DNA from: Opitutia bacterium | GTDB taxonomy: Bacteria > Verrucomicrobiota > Verrucomicrobiia > Opitutales > Opitutaceae | DNA: 64,000 bases | Direction of reading: 5' to 3' | Assembly: GCA_947478395.1 (NCBI GenBank) | Contig: CANJVR010000003.1 | Coordinates: forward strand, 32,001-96,000 | The notes under the pieces: model-generated | Database searches by the model: none | Seen by the model: the letters and a program-made list of their open reading frames with translations, nothing else | What the model was told of the DNA's origin: nothing | Shown: in pieces, positions 805 to 53,642 of the stretch | Layout: each line of letters begins with the position of its first letter | Numbering within the stretch: position 1 is the first letter of the stretch | Translations under genes and position numbers: made by a program

Positions 805-872
805 GGTGGGAGCGCGGCCGCCCTCGGCCGCATCCGGATTTTCCTGTGGCCCGAGGCGGCCGCGCTTCCATC
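805..872. repeat. REP-like palindrome, family A (GGGAGCGCGGCCGCC…GGCGGCCGCGCTTCC), intergenic copy
   Basis: Inverted arms visible; related copies at 2337, 15565, 52935 and a half copy at 58288. Confidence 0.85.
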
Positions 873-917
873 GAACATTCCTTGTCGCGCCACCCTCGCC
901 CGTCCAACGTCGCCGTC

Positions 918-1385
918 ATGCGTTTCGTTGTCGTCCTGCTTTCCCTCGTGTTCGCCAGCGCCACGTTGCGCGCGGCCGAGATCGAATTCGTGCGCGTCTG
1001 GCCTTCATGGCGCGCCGCGGAGTCGTTTGATCGCATCTCCGAATATTTCACGGAAAAGGAAAACACGGCGGGACGCACCCTGCTCCGCACTCAAGCGACG
1101 TCCCGGGCTGGTTATTATTTTCTCGTGCGGATCAAAGCTCCCGGCACCGCCCCCGCCGGCGCGAAATTCGTGTTGAACCTTATCACGCCGACCGACCCCG
1201 CGGGAAAAACTTACACGTTCCCGTTGAGCGTGGCCGTCGGTGGCGTCTTCGAACTCGGTCTGACCGGGACCGACTGGCCCAATCAAAAAACTCATCCCGT
1301 CGCGTGGAAACTGGAGCTCCTCGCGGCGGACGGACACGCTCTCGCCAGCGCGCAAAGTTTTCTATGGGCGATGCCCAGACCTTGA
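918..1385 (+). CDS. Hypothetical secreted protein
   Basis: ATG at 918, signal peptide MRFVVVLLSLVFASATLRA; stop overlaps the TTG of the next gene. Confidence 0.75.
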   Translation: MRFVVVLLSLVFASATLRAAEIEFVRVWPSWRAAESFDRISEYFTEKENTAGRTLLRTQATSRAGYYFLVRIKAPGTAPAGAKFVLNLITPTDPAGKTYTFPLSVAVGGVFELGLTGTDWPNQKTHPVAWKLELLAADGHALASAQSFLWAMPRP

Positions 1386-2320
1386 ACGCGCCGATCCCGG
1401 AGAGCCCGCGGCCCTTGGGCCAATCGTGGCATCCGCTTGAGGGTATCGGTTCACTCGACGAGCGCGTCCTCGCCGAGACCCTCGATGGTGGTCAGGCGTT
1501 TCGCTGGCGACGTGCAGCCGACGGCACATGGCGCGGGATTTGGGGCGAACACGTCGCGCATTTGCGACGCGCCTCCGATGGTTCGCTGGCCTGGTCCGGG
1601 CCGCGCGCAGAAACCGGCGCCGCTTTTATTCATTATTTCAGCAGCAACGAAATGAATGCGCCCGCCGACTCTCTGCCGTGGCGCAGCGATGCGCACTTGG
1701 CCCGCTGCCTCGCGGCGTTTCCGGGTCTTAAAATCTTACGCCAGCCGTTCGGTGAGACCCTGCTCGGTTTTTTGTGCAGCGCCACGAAGCAGATCGTACA
1801 GATCAAACAAATGGTCGCGCTGCTCGCGGAGCGTCACGGAAAACCCGTAGCGGAACGCATCCGCGTTTCGGGCGAAAGTCTCACGACTTCGGCTACGATG
1901 ATTTATCGTCTGCCAACCTGGCCGGAGCTCGCGGCAGTGCCGGAAACGGAATTGCGCGCCTGCCTGCTCGGCTTTCGTGCGCGCTACATTCACCAGACGG
2001 CGCAGTTCATCGCGGCGCACCCGGGATGGCTCGAAGAAACGGAGACGTTACCTTACGCCGAAGCGAAAGCCCGGCTCTGCTCGCTGCCCGGCGTGGGCGA
2101 AAAAGTCGCGGACTGCGTGTTGCTCTTTGGCGCGGGGAAAATGGAAGCCTTTCCCGTCGATGTCTGGATTTTGAAAGCCATGGCCGAGCGTTACGCGCTG
2201 CATGGTTGGAAGCCCGCGCAAGTCGCGCATTTCGGCCGGATGCACTTCGGTCCGCTCGCCGGCCTGGCGCAGCAATATCTCTTCGCGTGGGAGCGGGCGG
2301 AAGCGCGGGCGGTGAAATAG
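1382..2320 (+). CDS. 8-oxoguanine DNA glycosylase (OGG1-like, HhH-GPD family)
   Basis: TLDGGQAFRW N-domain, LRQPFGETLLGFLCS, HhH motif LPGVGEKVADCVLLF, FPVDVW; TTG start inferred from stop/start overlap. Confidence 0.9.
   Translation: MNAPIPESPRPLGQSWHPLEGIGSLDERVLAETLDGGQAFRWRRAADGTWRGIWGEHVAHLRRASDGSLAWSGPRAETGAAFIHYFSSNEMNAPADSLPWRSDAHLARCLAAFPGLKILRQPFGETLLGFLCSATKQIVQIKQMVALLAERHGKPVAERIRVSGESLTTSATMIYRLPTWPELAAVPETELRACLLGFRARYIHQTAQFIAAHPGWLEETETLPYAEAKARLCSLPGVGEKVADCVLLFGAGKMEAFPVDVWILKAMAERYALHGWKPAQVAHFGRMHFGPLAGLAQQYLFAWERAEARAVK
1846..1897. repeat. GTAG-capped palindrome inserted in frame in the OGG1-like gene
   Basis: CGTAGCGGAA…TTTCG-GG-CGAAA…TTCGGCTACG; terminal arms match 9/10; encodes VAERIRVSGESLTTSAT. 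Confidence 0.7.
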
Positions 2321-4270: not shown

Positions 4271-4331
4271 GTAGTGCGGGGCTTCAGCCCCCGTCGAACG
4301 TTCCCAGAACGCGGGCTGAAGCCTCGCGCTC
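4271..4331. repeat. REP-like family C (GTAG…CTTCAGCCC / GGGCTGAAGCCTCGCGC)
   Basis: Inverted arms; related copies at 13265, 33435 and a half copy at 23055. Confidence 0.75.
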
Positions 4332-6600: not shown

Positions 6601-6697
6601 GGTAGGGCGCGTTATCCCTAACGCGCCGGTTAGACGTTGCCCACGATGATACGTAGTCGGAGCCAAACGTGGCGGGTTAAGGATAACCCGCCCTACC
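6601..6697. repeat. REP-like family B (GGTAGGGCGSGTTATCCCTAAC…GTTARGGATAACSCGCCCTACC), intergenic copy
   Basis: Two inverted REP units; near-identical arms at 14844 and 37997, degenerate at 19545 and 24768. Confidence 0.9.
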
Positions 6698-14843: not shown

Positions 14844-14934
14844 GGTAGGGCGGGTTATCCCTAACCCGCCGCTGCGACTCGGCTCACCAAGAGAGCGACG
14901 CCCAACCGGCGCGTTAGGGATAACGCGCCCTACC
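14844..14934. repeat. REP-like family B, intergenic copy directly downstream of ftsY
   Basis: GGTAGGGCGGGTTATCCCTAACCCGCCG…CGGCGCGTTAGGGATAACGCGCCCTACC. Confidence 0.9.
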
Positions 14935-14945: not shown

Positions 14946-15917
14946 TCATCCCTCCAGGCCAAAAACCGCGCGCGCGTAATTCTCGGCGCTGAAAGGTTGG
15001 AGGTCTTCCTTTTGCTCGCCGAGTCCGACAAAATAAATGGGTAGTTTGAGTTCGCGCCAGATTCCGACGATCGCGCCGCCCCGACTGGTGCCATCCAGCT
15101 TGGTGATGACCAGGCCGGTGAGCCCGAAATTTTTATGGAAAACCTTGGCCTGCTCAATCGAGTTACTGCCGAGTGATCCGTCGACCACCAGCCAGGCATG
15201 ATGCGGCGCGGACGGATCGAGCTTCTGCAAGACGCGCCGGATTTTCGCGAGCTCCTCCATGAGGTTGCTCTTCGTGTGCAACCGGCCGGCCGTGTCGACG
15301 ATCAGGAAATCGCGGCCGCGACTCTGCGCCGCTTGCAACGCATCGAACGCAACGGCTGCGGAATCAGCCCCGGTGTGGCTGGCGACAATCTCAAGGTCGA
15401 GCCGCTGCGCCCAAGTCTTGAGTTGCTCAACGGCCGCGGCGCGAAAGGTGTCACACGCGGCGACGACCACGGATTTCCCCTCCTGTTTAAGTTTCCACGC
15501 GAGTTTCGCGGTGGTGGTGGTTTTGCCCGAGCCATTCACGCCGATCATGACGATCACGGTCGGGCCGGGTGCGCGGACGCCTACGTCCGCTTTCGCCATG
15601 GCGGCCGAGGCCGGCCGCGCTCCTGGGACGGCTAAATCGCCTTCGCTGCCGACGAGCACCCGCTGCAGCACCGCGGCGCCGATCGCAGCGGCCTGCTGCC
15701 CCACGAGCGAAGCATCTTTTTTGTAAGCCGCCTTGATCTCGCCGAGAATTTCTCCGGTTGTCTCGACGCCGAAGTCAGCGGTGTAGAGCGCTTCCTCGAG
15801 TTCATCGAGCGAGGCCGCATCGATTTTACGTCCACCGAAAAGCCCGCGCGTCTTCGCGCCGATCGCCGCCACGGTCTTGGCGAAGCCGTCTTTGAATTTT
15901 TTGAAAAGACCAAACAT
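14946..15917 (-). CDS. ftsY: Signal recognition particle receptor FtsY
   Basis: GVNGSGKTTT, DTFRAAA, DTAGR, TKLDG, GLGE…DLQPF. Confidence 0.97.
   Translation of the reverse strand: MFGLFKKFKDGFAKTVAAIGAKTRGLFGGRKIDAASLDELEEALYTADFGVETTGEILGEIKAAYKKDASLVGQQAAAIGAAVLQRVLVGSEGDLAVPGARPASAAMAKADVGVRAPGPTVIVMIGVNGSGKTTTTAKLAWKLKQEGKSVVVAACDTFRAAAVEQLKTWAQRLDLEIVASHTGADSAAVAFDALQAAQSRGRDFLIVDTAGRLHTKSNLMEELAKIRRVLQKLDPSAPHHAWLVVDGSLGSNSIEQAKVFHKNFGLTGLVITKLDGTSRGGAIVGIWRELKLPIYFVGLGEQKEDLQPFSAENYARAVFGLEG
15565..15626 (-). repeat. REP-like family A copy inserted in frame in ftsY
   Basis: CCAGGAGCGCGGCCGGCCTCGGCCGC…GCGGACGTAGGCGTCCGCGCACCCGG encodes PGARPASAAMAKADVGVRAPG just before the G-domain. 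Confidence 0.85.
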
Positions 15918-36815: not shown

Positions 36816-36833
36816 CGAAAAATCGGTATGAAC

Positions 36834-36892: not shown

Positions 36893-36901
36893 ACCACCCG
36901 A

Positions 36902-36979: not shown

Positions 36980-37007
36980 AGATTAACCCCCACCCAAAGT
37001 CACTGAA

Positions 37008-38996
37008 ATGATTCGTGCGTTTCAGTGGGACTTGGCGCGCCAGGTGGAGCGGCTCGACTGGCTGCTCGCCCAGCTTCCGCGCTATGCGGCCTGGGGCTAT
37101 CAGGAGCTTTATCTCCACCTGGAGGATGCGGTCGAATACCCCAGTCTGCCCGGCGTGGCGCGACGCGACGCGTATTCGTATCGCCAGCTCGCCCGCCTGG
37201 TCGACGCCGCAACGCGGGCCGGAATCAAGGTCGTGCCCATCGTGAATCTCCTCGGGCACACGCAATATCTGATCAAGGTGCCGGAGCTGCGCGATCTCAA
37301 CGAACTCCGCGCGCCCGACGGCTCGCCGCTGGAGCGGGGCCAGATTTGCCCCCTGCATCCTCGCACCCTGGAAGTCGCCGAAAAATTGCTGCGCGACATG
37401 GCGCCTTTCTGCACGGCGGGGAAGGTACACGTCGGGCTCGACGAATCGTTTCACCTCGGACAACACCCCCAATCACGCGCCGAGATCGCGGCGATCGGAC
37501 TGCCGGCGCATTTCGCGCGTTACGTGGGGCGCCTGCACGCTTTGACGGAGGCGCGCGGACTGCGTCTCGGATTGTGGGCCGACATGCTGGCCCTGTTGCC
37601 CGCGACGATTCCCCTGCTGCCGCGCGGCGTGATCGCTTACGACTGGTATTATTATCCCTTCGCCAAAAAACCGAAGATCGAGCTGAGAAATTTCACGGAC
37701 TACGATCTGGCGCCAGCGTTGCGCGCCCGCGGTATTGAATACTGGGGATGTCCGATGAACGGGGCCTTTCGCTATGAGCCGCTGCCGGTTTTCGGCGAAC
37801 GGCTCGATAACATCCGCGCGTGGTGGCAACGTTGTCATGCCGTCGGCGCGGCCGGAATGCTGGTGACCTCGTGGGAAGCGTACCGCCTCGCGATCGAAAC
37901 GACGACCGTGGTGGACGCCGCGGCGGCGAGCCTGTGGCTGGAGCTCGATGGCGCGAAAAAATCAAATACGGTGCTGCTGGCGCGAGGGCTGGAAAAGGTA
38001 GGGCGGGTTATCCCTAACCCGCCGCGTTTGGATCCGACCGCGTCCAATCGGCGCGTTAAGGATAACGCGCCCTACCTCGATACCGCGAAGGCGCTCCTCG
38101 CGGCGGACGCGCATGCTTTCTCCGGATACGCGCGCTGGGAAAGCAACGATCGCTGGGATGGCACGAGCGACGCCGACGCCCTTTCCATTTTCGAGCGTGA
38201 AGAAAAAAAATTCGCGCAACTGACCGCGCAGGACCTTCCTCCGCCGCTGGCCGCGAGCGTGGCGTGGCGCCGCTATCTGGCCCAGCGCGATGTTTTCGTG
38301 CGGCGGGCGGCGACGCAGGTTTTCGCTTGGCGGCGCGCGGCAGCGAAAAACCAGCCCGCCCGATTTGAAGGCGATCCGACCGCGGAAATTACCGCGTTTG
38401 TTGCCGCCCTAGCCGCGGGGCGAACGGCGGCGCGCGCGATGTGGAAGCGCACGCGCAATCCCAAACCGCGCGGGCAAAACGAAACAATTCTGGCCGCGGA
38501 CGAGCGCCGGCTGCGAGCGTGGCGGTCATGGCTTGGCGCCGTCGGAAAAAACCCCGCGCACGTGTGGACCGCATCCCCCGTGTGCGGCGCGTGGCAGTTG
38601 ACGTTCACGGTCCACAATTTCGCGCCGGCGCTACAGAAGATCGTCGTCGAACAACAGCGCACCGACGGCACGTGGCAAGACCTCGGCGGACGTTTCACGA
38701 TCGAGTTCCGCGCCGCGGCCGCGCGCCGCCGCGCCGCCGTTACGCGGCCTTTTTCCGTCCCGGTGGCCACGGCGGACGCTGCTCTGCGCCTCGCGGTGCG
38801 GGGACTCGGACAAGTCGCGATCAGCGGCGTGATATTCACCGACGGCGCTCGGGTCCTGCGCGCGAAAGGCTGGCGCGTCGGCCAAAAGAAAATCCTCGGC
38901 CGGCCTGCGCCGCGCCGAGGATTTCCCGAGTTGAATTGGACGCAGAATAACGACGCCGTCGCGCTCAGCTTCCCGTTTTCGCCGGCATTTCGATGA
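37008..38996 (+). CDS. Glycoside hydrolase family 20 (beta-hexosaminidase-like)
   Basis: VPIVNLLGHTQY, ICPLHP, VHVGLDE catalytic motif, WADM, DWYY. Confidence 0.85.
   Translation: MIRAFQWDLARQVERLDWLLAQLPRYAAWGYQELYLHLEDAVEYPSLPGVARRDAYSYRQLARLVDAATRAGIKVVPIVNLLGHTQYLIKVPELRDLNELRAPDGSPLERGQICPLHPRTLEVAEKLLRDMAPFCTAGKVHVGLDESFHLGQHPQSRAEIAAIGLPAHFARYVGRLHALTEARGLRLGLWADMLALLPATIPLLPRGVIAYDWYYYPFAKKPKIELRNFTDYDLAPALRARGIEYWGCPMNGAFRYEPLPVFGERLDNIRAWWQRCHAVGAAGMLVTSWEAYRLAIETTTVVDAAAASLWLELDGAKKSNTVLLARGLEKVGRVIPNPPRLDPTASNRRVKDNAPYLDTAKALLAADAHAFSGYARWESNDRWDGTSDADALSIFEREEKKFAQLTAQDLPPPLAASVAWRRYLAQRDVFVRRAATQVFAWRRAAAKNQPARFEGDPTAEITAFVAALAAGRTAARAMWKRTRNPKPRGQNETILAADERRLRAWRSWLGAVGKNPAHVWTASPVCGAWQLTFTVHNFAPALQKIVVEQQRTDGTWQDLGGRFTIEFRAAAARRRAAVTRPFSVPVATADAALRLAVRGLGQVAISGVIFTDGARVLRAKGWRVGQKKILGRPAPRRGFPELNWTQNNDAVALSFPFSPAFR
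37997..38076. repeat. REP-like family B copy inserted in frame in the GH20 gene
   Basis: Arms essentially identical to intergenic copies; encodes VGRVIPNPPRLDPTASNRRVKDNAPY. Confidence 0.92.
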
Positions 38997-39303: not shown

Positions 39304-39342
39304 GCGTGGAAGCGCCGGGTTCCGCCAGGTTGGCGGTGGCGC

Positions 39343-39378
39343 AAAATAAAAAGGGCGGCCGGTAGAACCGGCCGCCCT
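39343..39378 (-). terminator. Intrinsic terminator of the TonB-dependent receptor gene
   Basis: Minus strand: AGGGCGGCCGGT…ACCGGCCGCCCT followed by TTTTATTTT. Confidence 0.9.
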
Positions 39379-39405
39379 GGTAGAGCAGATTAAACTGGAA
39401 TCAGC

Positions 39406-42390: not shown

Positions 42391-42501
42391 AGCTAGTTTA
42401 GGTTGTGGGTTAGGCTCAGCATGAAACTCCCGCCGAGCAGCTTTAGTTTTTAACCAGCAAAAAATTGGTGGCATGTGTGTCATAATCAATCCCGAATTCA
42501 C

Positions 42502-42523
42502 CTGTCTTTAACCTGTCCGTAAC
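42502..42523 (+). promoter_or_regulatory. 11-bp-spaced direct repeat CTGTCTTTAAC/CTGTCCGTAAC (Pho-box/OmpR-family-like)
   Basis: Direct repeat in the divergent TBDR/peptidase intergenic region. Confidence 0.35.
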
Positions 42524-42582
42524 GTGCCTTTCCGAAAGTTGACTCCTCGGACAAACCTAGCTGAGTGCCATTAAACCCACCC

Positions 42583-44685
42583 ATGAAGACTCAATTCGCC
42601 CGCCTGCTGCTGACTCTGATCGTCACTGCACTGACCGGCCTCCCGCGTCTCATCCAAGCCGCGCCCGCACCGCTCATTCCACTCGAAATCCTGTTCGCCG
42701 ATCCCGACATGCAGGCGATCACCCTATCACCGACCGGCCGCTATCTCACTTGGCTGGCCCCGAAAAATCAGCGCATTAACCTCGCGATTATGGATCGTGA
42801 AACGAAGCAGGTCCGCTGGCTCACCAACATGAAGGAAGAAAGCGTCGTCGCCTACCAGTGGGCCAAAAAAGACCGGATCCTGTTTTCCCAACAATTCGCC
42901 GGTCGTGAGGTATACGGCATGTTCGCGTGCGATCCCGACGGCGGGAATCTGCTCGTGATCAACAAACTCGAGCGCATCGAGGCCACGCCCGACGGCGCCG
43001 GCGAGGGCGAACCGCCCGGCAGCGAGCGCGATCTGGTCAAATCGCTGGTCAACCTCATGCCGAGTGACCCCGACCACATTCTCATGAACCGCGTCCGCGG
43101 GCTGTCCTTCCTTGGCGACCTCGTGAAAGTCAACATTCGCACCGGCAAGGAATCGATCGAGGAGCGCAATTACATCGGCGCCCGCACGTGGATCGCCGAC
43201 CGCAACGGCGTGGTGCGCGTCGCCATCTGCACCGATTTTGAGGAGCCCGTGCGCGTGAAATACCGGTCTGATGCGAAGAGCGAGTGGCGCACCATCGGGG
43301 AATTCAGCAAGGAAACTTCTATCTTTCTTGAAGAAGCCGCACCCATCGAACCGCACTGGCGTCCCAGCGTGTTCGCCAAAGACAACCGCACGCTATTCGT
43401 GAAAACTTTCATGGAGCACGACAAGTCGGCCCTGCGCACGCTCGATCCCGAGACTGGCACGTGGGGCCCCATCCTATTTACCCACCCCCGCGTCGAACTG
43501 GGCGACCGCCTCGGCAACTACCGCCGCGGCGGCATTTCGTCCCGCGCCGCGCTTGACGGTTTGATTTTCAACAACAGCGGCGAACTCGCGGGCGTCGCCT
43601 ACGACGACGAATATCCCGAGGTCGAATGGCTCGACCCCAAGATGGCCAAACTCGCGCATGACCTAGACACCGCACTCCCGGGCACGCGCAACGCCATTGT
43701 CAGCACCACGAGCGACGGCAATCTCATGGTTGTGCGCGCCGCCAGCGAACGCGACCCGGGCACGTTCTACCTTTACGATGCAGCCAAACAGGAGCTGAGC
43801 GAAATCGGCCAGGCGCGAAAAGGAATCAATCCAAAGCAAATGGCCGAAATGCGCCCCATCCGCTTCAAGGCCCGCGACGGACTCGAAATCCCCGGCTACC
43901 TCACCGTGCCTGCCGGCCGGGAAGCGAAGAATCTGCCGATGATTCTTGTGCCGCATGGCGGCCCGTTTGGTCCGCGCGACACGTGGGCCTACAGCGACCA
44001 GATTCAATACCTCGCCAACCGCGGCTACGCGGTCCTCCAGGTGAATTACCGCGGCAGCGGCGGCTACGGCCTCGCGTTTCAGCTCGGCGGCTACAAGCAA
44101 TGGGGCCGGAAAATGCAGGACGATCTGAGCGATGGCGTGAAATGGTGCATCGCGGAAGGCATCGCCGACGCCAATCACGTCGGTATCTTCGGCGCAAGCT
44201 ACGGCGGCTACGCCGTGCTCGCCGGCCTCACCCTCACCCCCGAGCTCTACTGCTGCGGCGTGGACTACGTGGGCGTGGCCGATCTCGAACTGCGCCAGGG
44301 CGCGAACACATTCTCGCCACCGCGCATCATCCGCGAAGGCGCCGCCATCCGTGACCTTGATCCATTAAGAGACGCCGCCATCATTCGCGCCACGAGCCCC
44401 GCCGCCCACGTGCAAAACGTCCGCGCGCCGCTCTTCGCGGCGTACGGGAAGAATGACCCGCGCGTACGTTTCGAGCAATGGCAGGTGCTCGAATCACGAC
44501 TCAAGCAGTACGGCAAAACCTACGAAGTCATGATCGCTGAAAACGAGGGCCACGGTTTCCGTAAACTGGAGAACAAACTGGAATTCTACCGCCGCGTGGA
44601 GGACTTCCTCGCGCGCAACATGACCACCAAGGAAGGCAGCGTTAAAATCGGCGCACCGGTGATTGTGCACGATAAAACCAAGTAG
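42583..44685 (+). CDS. Secreted S9 family (prolyl oligopeptidase/dipeptidyl aminopeptidase-like) peptidase
   Basis: Signal peptide; PHGGP, QVNYRGSGGYG, GASYGG, NDPRV, EGHGF. Confidence 0.95.
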   Translation: MKTQFARLLLTLIVTALTGLPRLIQAAPAPLIPLEILFADPDMQAITLSPTGRYLTWLAPKNQRINLAIMDRETKQVRWLTNMKEESVVAYQWAKKDRILFSQQFAGREVYGMFACDPDGGNLLVINKLERIEATPDGAGEGEPPGSERDLVKSLVNLMPSDPDHILMNRVRGLSFLGDLVKVNIRTGKESIEERNYIGARTWIADRNGVVRVAICTDFEEPVRVKYRSDAKSEWRTIGEFSKETSIFLEEAAPIEPHWRPSVFAKDNRTLFVKTFMEHDKSALRTLDPETGTWGPILFTHPRVELGDRLGNYRRGGISSRAALDGLIFNNSGELAGVAYDDEYPEVEWLDPKMAKLAHDLDTALPGTRNAIVSTTSDGNLMVVRAASERDPGTFYLYDAAKQELSEIGQARKGINPKQMAEMRPIRFKARDGLEIPGYLTVPAGREAKNLPMILVPHGGPFGPRDTWAYSDQIQYLANRGYAVLQVNYRGSGGYGLAFQLGGYKQWGRKMQDDLSDGVKWCIAEGIADANHVGIFGASYGGYAVLAGLTLTPELYCCGVDYVGVADLELRQGANTFSPPRIIREGAAIRDLDPLRDAAIIRATSPAAHVQNVRAPLFAAYGKNDPRVRFEQWQVLESRLKQYGKTYEVMIAENEGHGFRKLENKLEFYRRVEDFLARNMTTKEGSVKIGAPVIVHDKTK

Positions 44686-44861
44686 AGTCCTCCCTCACCA
44701 TTGGGCGCCGCGGCGGCGAGATCAGGGTCAAAAACCTGATTTCTGCGGTGCGGTCATTTTGATTCCACCTAGCAATTACAAGAGCCACCCATGCACTGCA
44801 CCGCGGTTCACCAGTTTGGTTTTCCACTCACCCGCCGAGTCGCCACCGGCGGCATGTCCGC

Positions 44862-45866
44862 ATGAAAGAGCTAGCGGCAGTCCTGCGTGACCTCGTCCGT
44901 GAAGGGCGCGCACCCGGGGTGCTCGCCACGCTCGTGTCAGTCGCCGGATCGTCCTACCGCCGCCCCGGCGCACGCCTGCTGCTCACTGCAGAGGGCCGGC
45001 GCCTCGGCTCAATCAGCGGCGGCTGCCTCGAGGAAGACGTTCTCGTTCGCGCCCAACGCGTCGCCGTCACCGGCCAGGGCGAACTCATCACCTATGATAC
45101 TTCGGCCGAAAACGACCTAGTCTGGGGGGTGGGTCTCGGTTGTCACGGTGTCGTGCAGATCCTCCTCGAAAGGCTGCCGCAAAAACCAACGTGGCTCGAA
45201 GTGTTGTCCGCCAATCTCGCCCTGCGACGCCCAACTCCGCTGGCCGTGGTTTGGCGCGCCGCCGATCCCGCCGCACTCGGGACCCACCTTGCAGCCGAAT
45301 TGACATCGGCCGCCAAACCTTCGCCCGACTCCACGGCGGAGATTTTTTTTGACACCATCGCTCCGCCGCCCGCCCTCACCATTTTCGGCGCCGGCGACGA
45401 CGCCATGCCTCTGTCGCGTTTGGTGAAAGAACTCGGCTGGCACCTCACGATCGCCGACCCACGCGCCGCGTTCGCGACGAGCGACCGCTTTCCGCTGGCG
45501 GATAAAATCATCGTTGCCCCGGCAAACGAACTCGTGGGCCGCGCGCCGTTGGATTCCGAGAGCCTCGCCGTGGTGATGACTCACCATTACGTTCACGACC
45601 GTCCGATTCTGGCGGAATTGCTGCAACGTCCCCTCGCCTACGCCGGCCTGCTTGGTCCCAGAAAACGCGCAGGGCAAATTCTCGATGACCTCGGTCATTC
45701 CATTTCCGCGGACCAACGCGCCCGCCTGCACGCCCCCGTTGGCCTAGATCTTGGCGCGGAAACTCCCGAGGAGGTGGCACTGAGCATTCTCGCCGAGATG
45801 TGCTCCGTCCTTCGTCAACGCGACGGTCGCCCCCTCCGCGAGAGAATGCGTCCGATCCATGACTAA
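44862..45866 (+). CDS. XdhC/CoxI family molybdenum cofactor insertion chaperone
   Basis: GSSYRRPGA, GSISGGCLE, GLGCHG, VMTH, HAPVGLDLGAETPEEVALSI. Confidence 0.93.
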   Translation: MKELAAVLRDLVREGRAPGVLATLVSVAGSSYRRPGARLLLTAEGRRLGSISGGCLEEDVLVRAQRVAVTGQGELITYDTSAENDLVWGVGLGCHGVVQILLERLPQKPTWLEVLSANLALRRPTPLAVVWRAADPAALGTHLAAELTSAAKPSPDSTAEIFFDTIAPPPALTIFGAGDDAMPLSRLVKELGWHLTIADPRAAFATSDRFPLADKIIVAPANELVGRAPLDSESLAVVMTHHYVHDRPILAELLQRPLAYAGLLGPRKRAGQILDDLGHSISADQRARLHAPVGLDLGAETPEEVALSILAEMCSVLRQRDGRPLRERMRPIHD

Positions 45867-46470
45867 CCTCACTCCGAGGCCCTCACTTCGTTTCGGCGCG
45901 ATCATCCTCGCGGCTGGCGCATCGACCCGGATGGGCGAGCCCAAGCAGCTGCTACCGCTGGACGGAAAGCCACTCGTGGTGCGTGCAGCCGAAATTGCAC
46001 TGGCTGCCTCCGCCTGGCCGGTGGTGGTGGTGTTGGGCGCCCACGCCGAAAAAATTCGGCCCACGCTCGCCCGCCTGCCGGTCCTGATCGCCGAAAATCC
46101 CGCGTGGCCCGAGGGCATGGCAGCGTCGATTCGGGTCGGCATTACGACCCTGCAACAATTTTCCCGCACGCTTGATGCCGCCCTGATCGCGCTCTGCGAC
46201 CAGCCGGCCTTCACCTCCGCAGTGATTGGCCAACTCCTCGCGGCGCAACGTTCCACGGGGCGAACCATCGTGGCGGCCCGCTATTCCGGACGGCACGGAG
46301 CGCCGGCGCTACTGTTGCGTGACCATTTTCCTGCGCTGACTGCACTCACGGGAGAATCAGGCGCGCGCGATCTACTCAATGATCCATCCGGCCAGGTGAC
46401 TTCGGTCGAACTGCCCGCGCTCGCCCAGGATCTCGATACACCCGCTGATTACGCGGCCCTGAAAAAGTGA
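45859..46470 (+). CDS. Molybdenum cofactor cytidylyltransferase (MocA-like)
   Basis: ILAAGASTRMGEPKQLL, GMAASI, LCDQP, DLDTPADY. Confidence 0.9.
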   Translation: MTNLTPRPSLRFGAIILAAGASTRMGEPKQLLPLDGKPLVVRAAEIALAASAWPVVVVLGAHAEKIRPTLARLPVLIAENPAWPEGMAASIRVGITTLQQFSRTLDAALIALCDQPAFTSAVIGQLLAAQRSTGRTIVAARYSGRHGAPALLLRDHFPALTALTGESGARDLLNDPSGQVTSVELPALAQDLDTPADYAALKK

Positions 46471-46530
46471 ATACAGACCGGGTGAGAGCGGGCCGCCCGT
46501 GACGCCATCGGCTTAAATTCCATTCCGCCC

Positions 46531-47199
46531 ATGACCTTGCTCGATCTTTCCCAGCCTCTCTTCGACAACGCGCCCAATTGTCCGGTGCATCCGCCCGTCT
46601 CGTTTCGCCGCACGGCGGACCACCCCTCGGACGGCTGGCGAATGGAGGAAATCGCGATGGCCACGCACACGGGCAGCCATCTCGATGCCCCGCTCCACAA
46701 AATCGCCGGTGGTGCCAGCATCTCAGATCTGCCGTTGTCCACTTTTGTGGGCCCGGCCCGGATCGCCGATCTTCGCGGGTTGGCTCCGGATACACCCATC
46801 ACGCCGGAATTGCTTGCCCCCCGTTTGCCCGGGCTCGCCGTGAACGATATTGTCCTTCTCGCCACCGGATGGGGAGACCGTCGCGCCAAGACCGAGGAGT
46901 GGCTGCACCATCCACCTTTTTTGCATCCCACGGGGGCCCGGTGGTTGGTGGAGCAACGCGTGCGTGGCGTGGGCATCGATCACTATTCGATCGGCAGCCT
47001 TGGCCCGCTGAACGACGAGACCCATACGCTTCTGCTCGGCGCCGGGGTGTGGATCGTCGAGGAGCTGAAGTTTCCGGCCGCCGCCTTCACCCTTCCGCAA
47101 CCCGTGAAATTCTGGGCGCTGCCCCTCAACTGGCCCGGATGTTCCGGCGCGTTTTGTCGGCCAGTGATCGAAGTGAGTGAAGCGATTACCCGCGGTTAG
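46531..47199 (+). CDS. Cyclase/kynurenine formamidase family metal hydrolase
   Basis: HTGSHLDAPLH, VGIDHYS, IVEEL. Confidence 0.9.
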   Translation: MTLLDLSQPLFDNAPNCPVHPPVSFRRTADHPSDGWRMEEIAMATHTGSHLDAPLHKIAGGASISDLPLSTFVGPARIADLRGLAPDTPITPELLAPRLPGLAVNDIVLLATGWGDRRAKTEEWLHHPPFLHPTGARWLVEQRVRGVGIDHYSIGSLGPLNDETHTLLLGAGVWIVEELKFPAAAFTLPQPVKFWALPLNWPGCSGAFCRPVIEVSEAITRG

Positions 47200-47239
47200 C
47201 GGTGAGAGCGGTTTCACCCAAGGCGTCACCGCTGACGAA

Positions 47240-47300
47240 GTAGCGGCAGGCAGGGACGCCGGTCGCGACCCAAAACGGCCCCGGAAACATAAACCGCCCG
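47240..47300. repeat. REP-like family D (GTAGCGGCAGGC…) with shared tail
   Basis: Tail CCAAAACGGCC.CGGAAA…TAAACCGC also follows the copy at 49208. Confidence 0.55.
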
Positions 47301-47404
47301 CATGCGGCTAAAAAGCGTCGCCCCCTTTCGGTTCGCGGCGGAAGCCTGCGCCACAGCCGCACTCAGAACTTGCGCGGTGCGGGGGAACGTTTCCCTTCTC
47401 CCGC

Positions 47405-47833
47405 ATGAAAGTGTCGTTCACGGCCAAGGAATATACCCGCGTGCTCGAATTGACTCAGATGGGTCTGTGGGTCGCCGCGAAGGCGACGGATCGCTATGCG
47501 GAGGTCGAACAGACGTTGCTCGCGTTCGCCACTCCGCTCGGATGCGCGGATTTGGTCGAAGGGGACGAGGGCGACTTGAGGCCGTCCGAAAAATTGGAAA
47601 CCGGAACCATCGCGAAAAAAATAATGGAGTTTAGCGAAGACGTTTTCTGGCGCGAGTTAGTCGAACGCTTAGCCGAACGAGACCTCCGCGGCGAACTCGG
47701 TCCGACGAAACTCACGGACGAACTGAGCGCCAAAGAAACCCAGCGGCTGGAGGAAATCGAAGAGGGCTATTGGCGGGATTTCGAAGCCCACGGCACCGAT
47801 CACTTGGTCCTGTTAAAGGGCGGGCGGGGCTGA
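47405..47833 (+). CDS. Hypothetical acidic protein
   Basis: 142-aa ORF with protein-like composition filling the intergenic gap. Confidence 0.7.
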   Translation: MKVSFTAKEYTRVLELTQMGLWVAAKATDRYAEVEQTLLAFATPLGCADLVEGDEGDLRPSEKLETGTIAKKIMEFSEDVFWRELVERLAERDLRGELGPTKLTDELSAKETQRLEEIEEGYWRDFEAHGTDHLVLLKGGRG

Positions 47834-47859
47834 GAACGGAGATCGGCGCTAGTCCCAAC

Positions 47860-48030
47860 CGGGCTTTTGCGACCCGAGAAATCCCGCGCTGGAAACCGCC
47901 CCAGATTCCACGCACCCACTCGCCCCATGAGACCATTCGGAACGCGCCGCGCGCACATCAAATCGAAGCTCAACCTTGGAAACACCATGCAGCTCGCGCG
48001 ATGCTGCATCCGCTGGGTCGAGGACGCTTC
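47860..48030 (+). pseudogene. Frameshifted remnant of a LuxR/NarL-type HTH domain
   Basis: One frame reads FATREI…SPHETI; the next reads GTRRAHIKSKLNLGNTMQLARCCIRWVE. Confidence 0.55.
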
Positions 48031-48222
48031 AGACGCCGCCCCCGCGGATCGTCCGATCGGAGCGAGTGACAGCGACCGCCGATCAATCGCGCGTTCGCCC
48101 CGGCCACGCTCGATCCGGAAGTCAACGGCCGCCAGATCACTTGGGTTAAACTCCGGCGATGATGTTTGGAATTTTTCGATTTTATTCGTGCCCTTGCCGG
48201 CCTTTCCCGCCCAATTTCCGCC

Positions 48223-49170
48223 ATGTCCGCTGCCATCGCCCGCCCCGCTCTCATCGTCGCCGACCGCTGGCGCGACTACCAGGTGCTGGAATGCGGCGAC
48301 GGATTAAAACAGGAGCGCTGGGGCGCGTATACTCTCGTCCGACCCGATCCACAGATCATCTGGCCGAGGCATCGTTCGACCACGCTCACCACGGGTGGCG
48401 CGAAGTGGGAGAACTGGGACGGCTTCTACCACCGCAGCGACCAAGGCGGTGGTCGTTGGGAATTTCGCCGCCCCCTGCCCGATCATTGGAAGATCGCCTA
48501 CGAGTCGCTCGGCCTGACTTTTCGCATTCATCCCACCAGCTTCAAACACACCGGGCTTTTCCCCGAGCAGGCGGTTAACTGGGAGTGGTTCAGCGCGAAG
48601 ATCAAAGCCGCGCGCGCGGGCTCCGGTGAACCCCATCAAACCGCCGGCCGGCCGATCAGTGTCCTCAATCTTTTCGGTTACACGGGCGCGGCCACCTGCG
48701 CCGCCGCCAAGGCCGGCGCGAGCGTTGTCCACGTCGATGCCGCTGAGGGCATGGTCAAATGGTGCAAGGAAAACGCCGCGCTCAGCGGGCTGGCCGACGC
48801 ACCGATCAGGTACTTGGTGGACGACTGCCTGAAATTCGCGCGGCGCGAACAAAAGCGCGGGCGAAAATACGACGCCATCATCATGGATCCGCCCACCTAC
48901 GGCCGCGGGTCGACCGGCGAAATGTGGAAACTCGAGGAGCACCTCTGGGAACTCCTCACCGAGTGCCGCGCCCTGCTCAGTGAGCAACCGCTGTTCTTTC
49001 TGATCAACGCTTACACCGCGCGGCTTTCCCCCACCGTTGTCGCCAATCTCCTCGCCGAGCTCATGGACGGACGCGGCGGCACGATCACCGCCGGCGAAGT
49101 CGGCCTGCCGATTCAAGGCGACGGCAAAGTTCTCCCCTGCGGGATCTACGGCCGCTGGGAAACCGGCTAG
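48223..49170 (+). CDS. Class I SAM-dependent methyltransferase (RlmI/RlmK-like)
   Basis: HTGLFPEQ, VLNLFGYTG, VHVDA, IIMDPPTYG. Confidence 0.9.
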   Translation: MSAAIARPALIVADRWRDYQVLECGDGLKQERWGAYTLVRPDPQIIWPRHRSTTLTTGGAKWENWDGFYHRSDQGGGRWEFRRPLPDHWKIAYESLGLTFRIHPTSFKHTGLFPEQAVNWEWFSAKIKAARAGSGEPHQTAGRPISVLNLFGYTGAATCAAAKAGASVVHVDAAEGMVKWCKENAALSGLADAPIRYLVDDCLKFARREQKRGRKYDAIIMDPPTYGRGSTGEMWKLEEHLWELLTECRALLSEQPLFFLINAYTARLSPTVVANLLAELMDGRGGTITAGEVGLPIQGDGKVLPCGIYGRWETG

Positions 49171-49207
49171 AACGGCTTAACGAAAAGCGGAGCCGCTAAC
49201 GACGTTT

Positions 49208-49304
49208 CGGCAGGCGTCCCGGCCTGCCGAAACGAGAACGCCGAACCCGGCAGGCAGAGACGCCTGCCGCTACCAAAAACGGCCACGGAAAAACTTAAAC
49301 CGCT
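49208..49304. repeat. REP-like family D copy
   Basis: CGGCAGGCGTCCCGGCCTGCCG…CGGCAGGCAGAGACGCCTGCCGCTACC plus the shared tail. Confidence 0.7.
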
Positions 49305-50978
49305 CTAGCTTTTCAATCGCCCGACCGCCGCGAGCACGATCGATTGATCCGACGCCAATGCCGGCATCTCGGCAAAAACCGCCGCGGCGGCCGAACGATA
49401 ACTCGTCTTCCCTCGGGTGAGCGCCTGCACATAGCGCGTGGCCCGATCGATCAGTTTTAAATTGGTCGGTCGCACCCAGGTCATGACGTTGCCGGCATAG
49501 CGACCCATGCGGCCCATCAGGACGGTCGAATGCGCATTGAGCGCCAGCTTCAGCAACAACGTCTCCTCCAACGCGGTCGCCGCGATCGGTAACACCACAG
49601 CGACCTGACCCACGCTCAATTGCACGCGGCGGTCCGCCCGCAAGCTCACCAAAAACTCGGCGCCGCTCGCACGTTGTACTTTACCGCGCTCGCTCAGATC
49701 GAAGCCGTTCATCCACCCCATCGTCAGCTGCCGGCGAAATCGAAGGGGCGTCGCCCATGCGAGCGGCCGCGGCGTGCGATCGCCCAGCAGTTGCCGCCAC
49801 GCCGCCGCGGCATCGCGTGCGCCGGCCACCGTCACGTAACACCACGAAAGCCGCGGCCTACTTCGAACCGGATTTAATTGTGCGCGGGGTGCCCCCACCC
49901 CACTTGGACCGCTGCGGGGTGCGGGCGCCCCGCGCACAACCTGCGCCACCTGCGCTCCGGCCACCTGCGCGCGACCGCTCGCGAACTCACCTCGGTTCTC
50001 AAACGGCGCCAAATTAAACGTCGGTGCTCGCTCAGTCGTGTCGGCCAGCACCGTGATGGCCCGATGCGACGCGCGATATTCCACGCGACCGCAGCCGCGA
50101 TAGGCGCGTTGTTCGGCGCACACCAACGCGGCTTGGCGCACATGCGGAAAAGTTTTCACCGTCGAGGCCAGTCCATGCAAAAATCGCCCGCAGTCGGCCT
50201 CGTTGCCACCGTGCAAAAGCGCCCAGCCCACCGCGGCCATCTGCACCGTCGTCGCCTGCAACCGCGTGCTGCCGGCCAGCGCCATCGGACCCACCGTAAG
50301 TTCCAACGCTCGCACCCGGGGATGCGTGAGCACTTCGCGACAGCGCGCCAGCGTGGAAATCAAAATTTTCGCCGGATTGCAGAACACAAACCACACCGGT
50401 CGCACGCTTCGCTCCGCGGCCGCCAGCGCCGCCCCGATCACGTACGGCGTTTCGCCGCCCTCAGTCACAGCGATGAGCAAATCGTTTTTTCTGAAACCGA
50501 GCTGCCGCAAATGCCGCGCGCCATATTCGGGATGATCCTCGAATCCCTCAAATGAGCGGACGAGCGCCGCGTCGCCGCCGGCCATAAACGCGACGACATT
50601 TTCCCGCTGATCTGGTGTCGCCTGACGCCGCCACAGCTCTTCGAGATTCAACACCAAGCGTCCCGTGGCGCCACAACCGACCAGAAAAATCCGCCCCCGC
50701 CCCGCGCGGGTGGCGGCGATTTCTTCCGCGAGGTTGGTGATTAACGGCGCGTGTTTCGCCGTGGCACGGAGCGCCGCCGCGTCGACGGCGGCAAAATCGC
50801 GCAGCGCCGCCGCGGGATTATCCTGCGCGAGCTGCGAGAGCCGTCGCGTCCGCGGATGAATCTGTTCAGTCGGCAAATGGCCCAGGCGAAATTCCCCGGC
50901 CAAGCCCAAAAACGCCTCGAGCGAGTTCAATCCGTTGGCCGCGGCGACCGCGGCGGCCTGCTTTTTCTTTTTAACCAC
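49305..50978 (-). CDS. SIS-domain sugar-phosphate isomerase/etherase (MurQ/glucokinase-regulator-like)
   Basis: LPTEQ, GCGATGRL, MAGGD, EGFED, TEGGETP, GPMALAGSTRLQAT, NLKLIDRA; GTG start inferred. Confidence 0.82.
   Translation of the reverse strand: MVKKKKQAAAVAAANGLNSLEAFLGLAGEFRLGHLPTEQIHPRTRRLSQLAQDNPAAALRDFAAVDAAALRATAKHAPLITNLAEEIAATRAGRGRIFLVGCGATGRLVLNLEELWRRQATPDQRENVVAFMAGGDAALVRSFEGFEDHPEYGARHLRQLGFRKNDLLIAVTEGGETPYVIGAALAAAERSVRPVWFVFCNPAKILISTLARCREVLTHPRVRALELTVGPMALAGSTRLQATTVQMAAVGWALLHGGNEADCGRFLHGLASTVKTFPHVRQAALVCAEQRAYRGCGRVEYRASHRAITVLADTTERAPTFNLAPFENRGEFASGRAQVAGAQVAQVVRGAPAPRSGPSGVGAPRAQLNPVRSRPRLSWCYVTVAGARDAAAAWRQLLGDRTPRPLAWATPLRFRRQLTMGWMNGFDLSERGKVQRASGAEFLVSLRADRRVQLSVGQVAVVLPIAATALEETLLLKLALNAHSTVLMGRMGRYAGNVMTWVRPTNLKLIDRATRYVQALTRGKTSYRSAAAAVFAEMPALASDQSIVLAAVGRLKS
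49878..49970. repeat. Palindrome plus short tandem duplication inserted in frame in the SIS gene
   Basis: TTGTGCGCGGGGTGCCC…GGGCGCCCCGCGCACAA (arms match 16/17) next to three ACCTGCGC units. Confidence 0.8.
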
Positions 50979-51218
50979 GCGGCAGCGAAGCAGCGTTCGA
51001 CACGAGGTCGCAAGCGTGCGGAAAAAATCCCGCAAAGATCTTGCCCGCGGTTGCGACCGGCGCACTGCCTTATTTACGAATTCACGGAACGCGTTCCGCC
51101 TGCATTCAATCCAAGTGAACTGCGGCTGCGACGCAGGCCGCATGACGATCACGAAAGGTGGCGTAACTTTTTCCGTCAGGGGCCGGTGAATTGCCGCAGG
51201 GATGATTTTGGGGACTGG

Positions 51219-52502
51219 TCAGCTCACCATCGTGAGCTTGCTCACATCGAGCACATACATCTGCCGTCCACCGCTGTGCGCGGAGTCGATGCAGACCAGT
51301 TTTCCGTCCCGGCTCGCGCGCGGGTGATGGTCGCAACGCCACTCGCCGAGGTACGTCGGCGGACTGAAGAAATGGCCGATCGGAATTTTGCGGGCGGTCG
51401 GGATATGGTAGAGATAAGGATGCTGATAACGCCTCGCGTCGGGATACGTGTCGTTGAGCACCCACTGGTTTTTCGTGCCGGGCAGGTACGTGTTATGGCC
51501 GTTCACGACCATGTCGTCGGGACCGACCGCCTGCACCTCGGTGGTCCGGTCCTTGTAGAGATAAAACTTTTCCGCGGACAGCGACGGATGCCAGGCCCAG
51601 GCCATGACGTGCTCCGGATCGCGCCAGATGAAATGCGAGGTCTTTCCCCACGGATCTATGCAGAACAGATTTTTGCCGTCCCGATCACAGGTGAACGCGC
51701 GCGTATCGAAGCCGCCTGTCGCGGGTCCGCGATTACGCCAGCGATGCAGAAAAAAGAAACGCGAGCCGTCGGTGTTAAACAGCAGGTGATTGAACCAGTG
51801 CTTCGCCTCCGGCACGGGCGCGGATTCCGGCTTGCCGGTAAACGGCCGCTTCGCGATGTCGGCAAAAGTGAACAGCAATTCCTGTTTTCCCGTCGCCATG
51901 TCCATCCGCCAGATGCCGGCGTCGTCCGGCGCTTTCTTCTCGAAATTAGGATCGGGAATTCCGGTGTAACCGTAGCCCGGGCGACAATCGTTGAGTCGGC
52001 GAAAATCAGGGGCGATCGCAACTTTGCCGTCGGGACTGAGATTATAGATTGGTTGCGGCAGCGTGCGCATTTTCCGCGTCTGCACGTCCGTGACGCGGGA
52101 GACGAAGTGATCGCCCTCGCGATCATTCCAAATCACCTCGCGATCGCTCCCGGGTACCCATTGCAGCATGCATCCTTGCTGCCAGTTCCAGGCGTGCGTG
52201 GTGCCGAGTTCAATCCAGCGATCGCCGTCCTGCAAATCCACCATGCCGATGCGGAGAACGTCGTCGGCCTTCGGCGAACGCCCCTCGAAATCAATTTGGT
52301 TCGCCAGCAAGTAACGGTTGTCGGGGGAAAACTGAAACTTGTCGTAATACCCGAACCAATGAAATCGCGGTCCACGCGTGATCGCACGAACCAGCGGAAG
52401 ATTTTCATCGGTGGCGGTGTCGGCGGCGCGGGCGAGCAGGACACCGAGCGACCCCAAGGCTGGGGTGGCCGCGAGTGCCCGCAGAAAATTACGGCGGTGC
52501 AT
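51219..52502 (-). CDS. Tat-exported beta-propeller protein (oligogalacturonate lyase/TolB-like)
   Basis: MHRRNFL twin-arginine signal; HWFGYYD, WNWQQG, HWFNHL, RCDHHPR. Confidence 0.75.
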   Translation of the reverse strand: MHRRNFLRALAATPALGSLGVLLARAADTATDENLPLVRAITRGPRFHWFGYYDKFQFSPDNRYLLANQIDFEGRSPKADDVLRIGMVDLQDGDRWIELGTTHAWNWQQGCMLQWVPGSDREVIWNDREGDHFVSRVTDVQTRKMRTLPQPIYNLSPDGKVAIAPDFRRLNDCRPGYGYTGIPDPNFEKKAPDDAGIWRMDMATGKQELLFTFADIAKRPFTGKPESAPVPEAKHWFNHLLFNTDGSRFFFLHRWRNRGPATGGFDTRAFTCDRDGKNLFCIDPWGKTSHFIWRDPEHVMAWAWHPSLSAEKFYLYKDRTTEVQAVGPDDMVVNGHNTYLPGTKNQWVLNDTYPDARRYQHPYLYHIPTARKIPIGHFFSPPTYLGEWRCDHHPRASRDGKLVCIDSAHSGGRQMYVLDVSKLTMVS

Positions 52503-52664
52503 GGCTGAAACCGTGCTAGGTTCTTGCTCACACTCCACGTCAAATTTCGAGCGGCCAACCTCCAGGAACGGCCTCTGCAACGGTGGGCGGGACGCGGACA
52601 CCCCGCCACCGTTTCGAACTTCGAGGCCTTGCTCGCCCTGTTCAGCGCCCCCAAGTTTCTTCCG

Positions 52665-53642
52665 ATGCCCGCGCTCGAAACGACTCTGCTCCGACTGACC
52701 GAAGCGGATTGGCGCGCCCGCCAGTCGGCGCACGAAGCTCGCGTGCGCGCGTGGACGGATCCCCACCAAGCCCGCGCGGCCCGCGGAGAAAAGCATCCGG
52801 TCTTCGATTTTTTGTTCACGTATTACGCGTTTCGGGCGGCGTGGCTACGTCGCTGGCATCCGGGACCGGACGTCGCGCTGCTTGGCGAAAGCGCGCGCGA
52901 ATTTCTCCGCTGGCCCGAGTATCGCGAGGTGCACCTAGGAGCGCGGCCGCCGTCGGCCACAACTTCATCAATCGATGCGGACGAGGGCGTCCGCGCTCCC
53001 ACCGCCGTCGCCGTCGATCCCACGCAGTTGCCTGAACATCGCCGCGCTTTCGTCGCCTGGCTGCGCGATCTGTTGACGGCTGTGCAAACCCGCCCGGCCT
53101 TCTTTGGCTGTTTCGGCCTGCACGAATGGGCGATGGTTTACCGGCAAACACCTGACGAGATTCGCCACAACGCCTACGCGCTCCGTTTCCCTCCGGCCGA
53201 ACTCGCCCGCATCGTGGAGGGCTCGCCGATCACCTGCACCCACTTCGACGCGTTTCGCTTTTTCACCGCGCCCGCCCGTCCGCTGAACAAACTCCAGCCC
53301 ACGCGTGAAACCGCGCCGCAACACGAGCAGCGCGGGTGTCTCCACGCCGGCATGGATCTCTACAAGTGGGCGTTCAAGCTGGCGCCGTTTACGCCGAGCG
53401 AACTGATCGCCGATTGTTTCGCCCTCGCGCGCGACATTCGGGAAATCGACATGCGCGCGAGCCCGTATGATCTCCGTTCGCTGGGCTATGAACCCATCGC
53501 GATCGAAACGCCGGCTGGCCGCGCCGAATACGAACAGCACCAGCGTGCGTTCGCGACGCGCAGCGAACCACTCCGCGCGCGGCTCATCATGCTGTGCGAG
53601 CGACTGCTCACAACGGGTGAGACCGAGGTCGGCGTGCGTTGA
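52665..53642 (+). CDS. Conserved protein of the family commonly annotated 3-methyladenine DNA glycosylase
   Basis: KHPVFDFLFTYY, LRRWHPG, CFGLHEWAMVY, CTHFDAFRFF, GCLHAGMDLYKW, DMRASPYDL. Confidence 0.8.
   Translation: MPALETTLLRLTEADWRARQSAHEARVRAWTDPHQARAARGEKHPVFDFLFTYYAFRAAWLRRWHPGPDVALLGESAREFLRWPEYREVHLGARPPSATTSSIDADEGVRAPTAVAVDPTQLPEHRRAFVAWLRDLLTAVQTRPAFFGCFGLHEWAMVYRQTPDEIRHNAYALRFPPAELARIVEGSPITCTHFDAFRFFTAPARPLNKLQPTRETAPQHEQRGCLHAGMDLYKWAFKLAPFTPSELIADCFALARDIREIDMRASPYDLRSLGYEPIAIETPAGRAEYEQHQRAFATRSEPLRARLIMLCERLLTTGETEVGVR
52935..53003 (+). repeat. REP-like family A copy inserted in frame
   Basis: CTAGGAGCGCGGCCGCCGTCGGCC…GCGGACGAGGGCGTCCGCGCTCCCACC encodes LGARPPSATTSSIDADEGVRAPT. 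Confidence 0.88.

Follow-up and report, generated by a model that had tools for sequence, protein, structure and literature searches.

Repetitive extragenic palindromes in frame in four genes of an Opitutaceae genome segment

We analysed a stretch of 64,000 nucleotides (hereafter the window; about 62% G+C) from the genome of an Opitutaceae bacterium, a metagenome-type assembly of 3.31 Mb in 9 contigs that is labelled G000 in the comparisons below; the window corresponds to positions 32001-96000 of contig C3. Four of its genes, encoding the signal recognition particle (SRP) receptor FtsY, a protein with a glycoside hydrolase family 20 (GH20) domain, a SIS-domain protein and a conserved protein automatically named 3-methyladenine DNA glycosylase, very probably carry in-frame copies of the genome's own repetitive extragenic palindromic (REP) sequences, arranged as inverted pairs (REPINs) and likely inserted by a REP-associated tyrosine transposase (RAYT). 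Judged from the sequence, translation of these copies would lengthen the proteins by 18-41 residues, which are probably disordered. A preliminary description of the window had proposed that REP-type elements of several families lie in frame in genes, including the essential ftsY, and in this it was right; the palindromes are present where it placed them. It had counted at least five coding insertions from four families, of which four, from three families, are confirmed, the one in an OGG1-like gene being a singleton, and its estimate of 17-30 added residues has to be replaced by 18-41.

Palindromic elements within four genes of the window

The repeat families, F1 to F7, were obtained by counting over-represented 14-mers genome-wide and assembling them. 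The window holds 14 family elements, of which 4 are intragenic; all four are inverted pairs. The host genes and their elements are as follows.

14946..15917, minus strand: ftsY (SRP receptor), 323 aa; Pfam SRP54_N at residues 24-68, SRP54 GTPase at 119-319
15567..15626, minus strand: F5 REPIN in frame in the linker between the N and G domains of FtsY, residues 98-118, peptide PGARPASAAMAKADVGVRAPG
37008..38996, plus strand: GH20-domain protein, 662 aa; Pfam Glyco_hydro_20 at residues 3-197
37997..38076, plus strand: F2 REPIN in frame in the GH20 gene, residues 330-357, KVGRVIPNPP...RRVKDNAPYL
49305..51152, minus strand: SIS-domain, MurQ/GKRP-like protein, 615 aa; Pfam GKRP_SIS_N and SIS_2
49857..49986, minus strand: 130-nt insert in the SIS gene, net +41 aa; F3-like REPIN at 49878-49939 and a short CAGGTGGC tandem stretch
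52662..53642, plus strand: conserved gene bearing the automatic atlas name 3-methyladenine DNA glycosylase; the open reading frame (ORF) opens at 52524, with a probable start near 52662
52937..53000, plus strand: F5 REPIN in frame in the glycosylase-named gene, peptide LGARPPSATTSSIDADEGVRAPT; two inverted F5 units with 3 and 0 mismatches

Orthologues of ftsY were found in all 31 genomes searched, and 20 FtsY sequences were aligned. The element consists of two inverted F5 units (15567-15624) that differ from the family seed at 3 and 2 positions, and the peptide stretch GARPASAAMAKADVGVRAP would be among the products of the gene. The insert adds 18 aa and is absent from 14 of 14 same-genus orthologues other than that of the nearest relative, G015 (93% identity), in which a longer insert occupies the same site. 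The ends of the G015 insert are still F5-like, and the copy has decayed, its palindrome being lost (folding z-score -0.66). In the AlphaFold model of FtsY, the predicted local confidence (pLDDT) falls below 50 at residues 98-114, between the last helix of the N domain and the first strand of the G domain. The same linker contains a two-hairpin insert, including an exact F3-type hairpin, in a Lacunisphaera metagenome-assembled genome (MAG).

The GH20 element lies after the catalytic-domain match, and same-frame coding potential is positive on both of its flanks. Its two inverted F2 units have 0 and 1 mismatch to the seed (fold z -5.3), and the encoded peptide includes VGRVIPNPPR. A full-length orthologue was found only in G015 among 30 relatives (78% identity), and as this single orthologue has an F2 element at the same site, there is no empty site for comparison. 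The left arm is identical in the two genomes at 27 of 27 positions while the flanking codons differ, and the right arm of the G015 copy carries three paired stem substitutions that keep the hairpin. We considered whether the G015 right-arm variant represents a subfamily; it matched only itself and one copy with 2 mismatches in G015, and nothing in G000, G001 or G007, and the idea was dropped.

Homologues of the SIS gene were detected in four relatives (G015, G019, G029 and G018), and NCBIfam MurQ models match the protein below their cut-offs. Its element is made of two inverted units of an F3-like variant with 0 and 2 mismatches (fold z -5.8). All four aligned homologues, that of G015 included, lack the insert, whose 130 nt stand in place of 7 nt in G015. 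On inspection against this empty site no direct repeat was seen at the insert borders, and at this one site the terminal inverted repeats with target-site duplication typical of insertion sequences were not found.

The glycosylase-named protein scores 0.96 in a protein atlas against clusters that carry this name automatically, which serves as a lead only, and it has no Pfam or NCBIfam match; the mean pLDDT of its AlphaFold model is 56.7. Its orthologues occur in 16 of 17 other same-genus genomes, and coding potential is found in frame +2; our codon-usage gene caller missed the ORF (52524-53642) because a minus-strand ORF overlaps it. The insert adds 17-18 aa and is absent from 12 of 13 aligned orthologues; in G001 the site is taken up by a different insert. 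The G015 contig ends exactly here, within the right F5 arm, so that G015 very probably shares the insert.

Most or all of the aligned orthologues thus lack the ftsY, SIS and glycosylase-named inserts. Each of the four elements lies in an open frame with a coding signal or conserved protein on both sides.

The assembly was checked with Logan contigs from four runs (X9, X10, X13 and X15) of four different studies, aligned to window positions 36500-54500. Contigs of all four independent studies cross the SIS insert without a gap, and those of two runs (X9 and X15) cross the F5 pair of the glycosylase-named gene. At the GH20 element, contigs stop in the F2 arms (38024) and resume at 38050 or further, as expected of a repeat in k-mer assembly. 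No contig joint in these four runs skips an insert within the aligned region. All four runs have one extra C relative to the window after 36986 and another after 52605. The latter site falls in the overlap of the plus-strand ORF 52524-53642 with the minus-strand ORF 51219-52796, of which the extra C would alter the N-terminus; it may be an assembly indel.

Repeat families of the genome and their candidate mobilisers

Units of the families were counted by BLAST and a mismatch scan of the whole 3.3-Mb genome, with overlaps then removed. At least six short palindromic families are present, on all 9 contigs, in 612 units: 259 of F1, 123 of F2, 91 of F3, 58 of F5, 41 of F7, 34 of F4 and 6 of the F3-like variant. 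The units are 23-28 nt long, each with an internal hairpin, and cluster into 396 elements, of which 189 contain two or more units, typically as inverted pairs in the REPIN arrangement. The seeds are as follows.

F1: GTAGCGGCAGGCGTCCCTGCCTGCCG
F2: GGTAGGGCGSGTTATCCCTAACSCGCCG
F3: TGTGGGCGGGGTGCCCTCACCCCGCA
F4: GGGAATGTCACTTAATAGGTGACATGT
F5: GGGAGCGCGGMCGCCCYCGKCCGC
F7: AACGCGGGCTGAAGC...

The GTAG heads noted earlier are present on F1 (GTAGCGG) and F2 (GGTAGGG), while F5 has GGAG and F3 has GTGG; degenerate REP heads, including GTGG in Opitutus terrae, have been reported (PMC3733652, in the parts available to us). Given that reversed, non-complemented control patterns gave no match in the genome, against 45 matches for F5 and 69 for F2, the families are far beyond chance. 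Element doublets have DNA folding z-scores of -2.6 to -5.8. The F4 family (GGGAATGTCACTTAATAGGTGACATGT; nearly all of its 34 units single, for example C5:171286-171312 and C3:322968-322994 of G000) has an AT-rich loop and, within genes, is always read as (T/E)CHLIGD(I/M), in its only stop-free frames; it could represent either a family of REPs or a site bound by a protein.

Elements were located relative to the calls of a home-made codon-usage caller (2368 genes, 84% coding), which makes the following genome-wide counts approximate: of the 396 elements, 320 fall between genes, 29 run across a gene end and 47 are contained in ORF calls. Many of the 47 are within about 130 nt of the ORF 5' end, which is probably over-extension of the ORF. 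An open frame for 180 nt on either side and a positive coding score on both flanks were found for 20 elements. To these we added by hand four that fall below the coding-score threshold and lie deep in long ORFs (the SIS element, C1:697093, C3:379467 and C6:26652), giving 24. Roughly 20-24 of the 396 elements, about 5-6%, are therefore in frame within genes, and compared with this share the window is unusually rich in them. By family, the intragenic elements number 0 of 144 for F1, 5 of 85 for F2, 6 of 70 for F3, 5 of 33 for F4, 7 of 37 for F5 and 1 of 27 for F7; the difference between F1 and the other families is significant (Fisher p = 2.6e-5), the elements not being strictly independent. All five intragenic F2 elements are read as VGRVIPN, the forward arm having no other frame free of stops.

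Among the host genes outside the window are those of PurL and an SNF2 helicase. PurL has 21 additional residues at positions 710-730, absent in five of five relatives, that contain VGRVIPNAP and correspond to an F2 unit; it also has other, non-palindromic inserts that are genome-specific. F2 pairs occur twice in the SNF2 helicase, and other species carry different palindromes at both sites.

As had been noted before, no mobilising nuclease gene lies in the window. A PF01797 search of the genome returned one Y1 gene, at C1:346485-347462, flanked by none of the F1-F7 repeats; its 325-aa Y1_Tnp product scores 62.8 bits against the RAYT model, and within C1:346485-348000 the upstream region is duplicated and contains a 13-copy motif, GGGGAAATGGGCAACCTGACCCC. 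A search with the NCBIfam RAYT model revealed two further loci, on C5 and C6, both flanked by REPs.

C5:141911-142282, no strand given: F2-flanked RAYT, 78.1 bits to NF047646 (cut-off 80), with HUH (PDHVHSL) and Tyr (SNYIRQNP) motifs
C6:112969-113133, no strand given: F5-flanked RAYT remnant of 55 residues, the C-terminal third only, between two F5 pairs (locus C6:112892-113169)

The C5 locus (141808-142335) has an inverted F2 unit on each side of the gene, the layout of a REPtron. In G000 the gene is interrupted by one in-frame TAA. This codon reads TAC in runs X10 and X15 and TAA in X9, X13 having no cover, and the X15 sequence also has a 1-base insertion upstream that would shift the frame. 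Because these changes differ among the runs, the F2-flanked RAYT is polymorphic for inactivating changes. G015 has a similarly broken F5-flanked copy. Profile searches of the genome detected no RAYT beside F1, F3 or F7, and in an assembly of 9 contigs such a gene could be missed.

F5 is represented by 45 matches in G000, 31 in G015, 13 in G001 and 0-6 in each of the other 14 same-genus genomes, and F2 by 69 in G000, 171 in G015, 77 in G001 and 38 in G007, the rest of the genus having almost none; beyond the genus both families gave single matches only. The nearest named relatives of the genome, among the 80 related loci returned, are Opitutaceae MAGs. The ftsY, GH20 and, very probably, glycosylase-named inserts are common to G015 and therefore predate the split between G000 and G015, whereas the SIS and PurL inserts are specific to G000. 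The preliminary description had called the system active, which finds partial support at best: G015 has three of the four inserts of the window as well, the F5 RAYT is a remnant and the F2 RAYT has a TAA, yet some recent activity is plausible, given the G000-specific SIS and PurL inserts and the F2 RAYT without the stop codon in one population.

Origin and persistence of the intragenic copies

The distribution described above was probably produced as follows. A RAYT would mobilise REPs through single-stranded DNA, and their insertion would be more or less untargeted. Selection would then purge the copies that break a reading frame, add a stop codon or hit a folded core, so that copies in linkers and loops alone would persist, as tolerated passengers, and decay later.

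Several observations weigh against so simple an account. F2 units in genes are nearer to the seed than intergenic ones (mean 1.0 versus 2.95 mismatches, n = 8 versus 101, Mann-Whitney p = 0.013), and the GH20 element shared with G015 keeps an identical left arm (27/27) and three paired changes despite its differing flanking codons. F1 is never found in genes (0/144) though five of its six frames are free of stops. No F1 repeat, the family with most copies, and no F3 repeat, the type found in the SIS insert, has a RAYT for a neighbour, and the gene calls behind the genome-wide counts are approximate. We entertained the hypothesis that stop codons keep F1 out of genes and rejected it; with five of six frames open, stop codons alone fail to explain which families enter genes. 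Nor was there support for intragenic copies being older and more decayed, F2 giving the opposite result and F5 no difference. Gene conversion, re-insertion into resident REPs or selection for the hairpin could each explain the F2, GH20 and F1 anomalies, for which one full orthologous pair is at hand; the decayed ftsY copy of G015 argues against a general constraint on the hairpin.

One alternative is that the intragenic hairpins are kept for a function at the level of DNA or RNA, such as ribosome pausing at domain boundaries, stabilisation of the mRNA or gyrase binding, and are not mere passengers. The paired stem substitutions beside an unchanged left arm in GH20 and the closeness of intragenic F2 units to the seed would fit this idea, as would the fact that FtsY, GH20, the SNF2 helicase and PurL have their inserts at a domain boundary, and the presence of hairpin pairs in the same FtsY linker in G000 and the Lacunisphaera MAG. 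The FtsY of O. terrae, not among the 80 related loci returned, also has a single REP at about the same position (105-111 of 319), judged by the residue numbers published in the portion of PMC3733652 at hand and not by alignment. However, the G015 ftsY copy has no palindrome, most orthologues work without any insert, and intragenic F5 units are no better preserved than intergenic ones; moreover, the case for hairpin conservation is built on one orthologous pair of full arms and could be mimicked by gene conversion between family copies. We thus consider such a function rather improbable. Similar in its appeal to recurring sites is the proposal that the same interdomain linkers (the FtsY N-G linker, the two SNF2 helicase sites, PurL and the loop of the glycosylase-named protein) are reoccupied by different REP families across species, the inserts being no random survivors, with at least one orthologous copy keeping its hairpin by compensatory changes. 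This too appears unlikely on the present sequences; if true, either new REPs would home into or overwrite resident ones, or selection would favour a structured element at domain boundaries, perhaps one that makes translation pause.

The inserts could instead be ordinary variable loops, grown by slippage or local duplication and palindromic by chance, with no mobile element involved. The OGG1-like segment fits such a description, as a singleton absent from five relatives in a loop of 8 to 30 aa, and the SIS insert has a short tandem stretch beside its REPIN, as PurL has its non-palindromic, genome-specific inserts. But the ftsY, GH20, SIS and glycosylase-named segments match dispersed families of tens to hundreds of copies, mostly intergenic, and the reversed control patterns gave no matches, which makes this explanation of the four inserts very improbable. 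Least credible of all, and largely refuted already, is that the inserts are assembly artefacts or that their hosts are pseudogenes open by chance. The assembly is of the metagenome type, in 9 contigs, and the four runs agree on the extra C at two positions; yet the SIS insert is contained in contigs of four independent studies and the glycosylase-named insert in those of two, contigs end in the GH20 F2 arms as a repeat would lead one to expect, every insert is flanked by conserved protein sequence on both sides, and same-frame coding potential is positive on both sides in ftsY, GH20 and the glycosylase-named gene. Insertion of the genome's own REPs, tolerated in linkers and loops, is the explanation that we favour for the four in-frame elements.

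Further palindromes of the window and comparison with known systems

Intergenic elements of the window include the following, for none of which a strand is assigned.

808..869: F5 REPIN
4273..4330: F7 pair
6601..6697: F2 REPIN
14844..14934: F2 REPIN, immediately downstream of ftsY
49204..49273: F1 REPIN (GTAGCGGCAGGCGTC... type), between the SAM-methyltransferase gene and the SIS gene

Two other palindromes touch genes.

1846..1897, plus strand: singleton palindrome in the OGG1-like gene (1304-2320), GTAGC..GCTAC closing two hairpins, fold z -3.0 and -3.7
61606..61681, plus strand: AT-rich palindrome (CGAAAATCGAAAAT type) with inverted repeats at the aroE start

The OGG1-like palindrome matches only itself in the genome and has no match in five relatives. 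Within the genus, the loop that contains it is anywhere between 8 and 30 aa long; that of G015 is 14 aa shorter. On this sequence evidence the segment is a singleton in a variable loop for which membership of a repeat family appears unsupported; it may be the relic of a REP dimer. The preliminary description had also suspected insertions in aroE and in a methyltransferase gene. The aroE palindrome overlaps the start codon, TTG 61625, and no other in-frame start precedes the conserved N-terminus. The alignment with orthologues begins at residue 15-24, and because the overlapped start is the only usable one, the right arm of the palindrome probably encodes the first 19 or so residues. The methyltransferase ORFs of the window are free of family elements. 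The AT-rich heptamer-like type to which the aroE palindrome belongs (CGAAAATCGAAAAT / CAAAACTCAAAACCC) is translated in genes as SKIENPKSK- or ETQNPKP-like stretches; besides 61606-61681 of the window, it occurs in PurL (C9:67413-71810) and the SNF2 helicase (C2:572539-575487) of G000, and in the relatives G007 and G009.

Between the GH20 gene and a TonB-dependent receptor gene, a minus-strand ORF of 85 aa (38965-39222) has a Peptidase_S9 match confined to the C-terminal end of the profile (positions 152-210 of 213) and, from its sequence, looks like a gene fragment.

Intragenic REPs were described in several species by Di Nocera, De Gregorio and Rocco (2013, BMC Genomics 14:522; PMC3733652), and what is said here of that work refers to the parts of it available to us. 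Its Additional file 3 tabulates 70 intragenic GTAG REPs in O. terrae PB90-1, whose host genes include FtsY (Oter_1709, residues 105-111), GH20 (Oter_0701), DUF423 (Oter_0698), PurL (twice), two uvrA genes and helicases. O. terrae thus provides a published case of the same phenomenon, in the same bacterial family and in part in the same host genes, and the window is a further example. Both genomes have several coexisting REP families, mostly as inverted dimers, and numerous housekeeping genes with inserts of some 7-50 aa read in frame, certain genes being hit twice, and the kinds of host (FtsY, GH20, PurL, UvrA and helicases) agree. They differ in the families as judged from the encoded peptides, not from DNA (GARPPSA/VRAP and VGRVIPNPP/RRVKDNAPY here; VAGVADPGPGSASPA, VGPALAAG and GTGVPPV there), and in the GH20 site, which is at residues 330-357 here and 457-465 there. 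The gene order in the window at 34438-38996 is DUF423, a CCA/poly(A) polymerase-type gene, a small ORF and GH20; this parallels the O. terrae locus tags from Oter_0698 (DUF423) to Oter_0701 (GH20), both REP-bearing according to the same paper.

The elements resemble the REP/REPIN-RAYT systems (REPtrons) of Pseudomonas, E. coli and Stenotrophomonas in being short, GC-rich imperfect palindromes, with a GTAG-type head in F1 and F2, present as inverted doublets in hundreds of copies that are mostly extragenic, and, at the F2 locus, in having a single-copy gene for a Y1 HUH transposase with its own REPs on both sides. Unlike REPtrons, they have about 5-6% of elements in frame in genes, two damaged RAYT loci, and no RAYT found for F1 or F3. 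The precedent of the Rickettsia palindromic elements (RPEs), as outlined in the consulted portion of a 2024 review (PMC10969869), is one of likeness in behaviour only: palindromic repeats lie in frame in unrelated, often essential genes and are said to be compatible with fold and function. The classic RPE families are about 100-150 bp long with a conserved peptide, against REP dimers of 58-92 bp here, and the host here is a free-living lake bacterium and not an obligate intracellular one. Di Nocera et al. equated RPE-4 and RPE-6 with CGTC-type REPs (PMC3733652).

In practical terms, such inserts break domain matches, fragment metagenome assemblies and extend ORF starts, all of which matters for annotation, and they offer a collection, made by nature, of insertions that linkers tolerate. 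Further work is possibly worthwhile on two points, the recurrence of inserts at the same sites and the changes that preserve a hairpin. If our interpretation is correct, small selfish palindromes would have added peptide segments to housekeeping proteins of this lineage of freshwater Opitutaceae, some of them before the most recent split between species and others after it.

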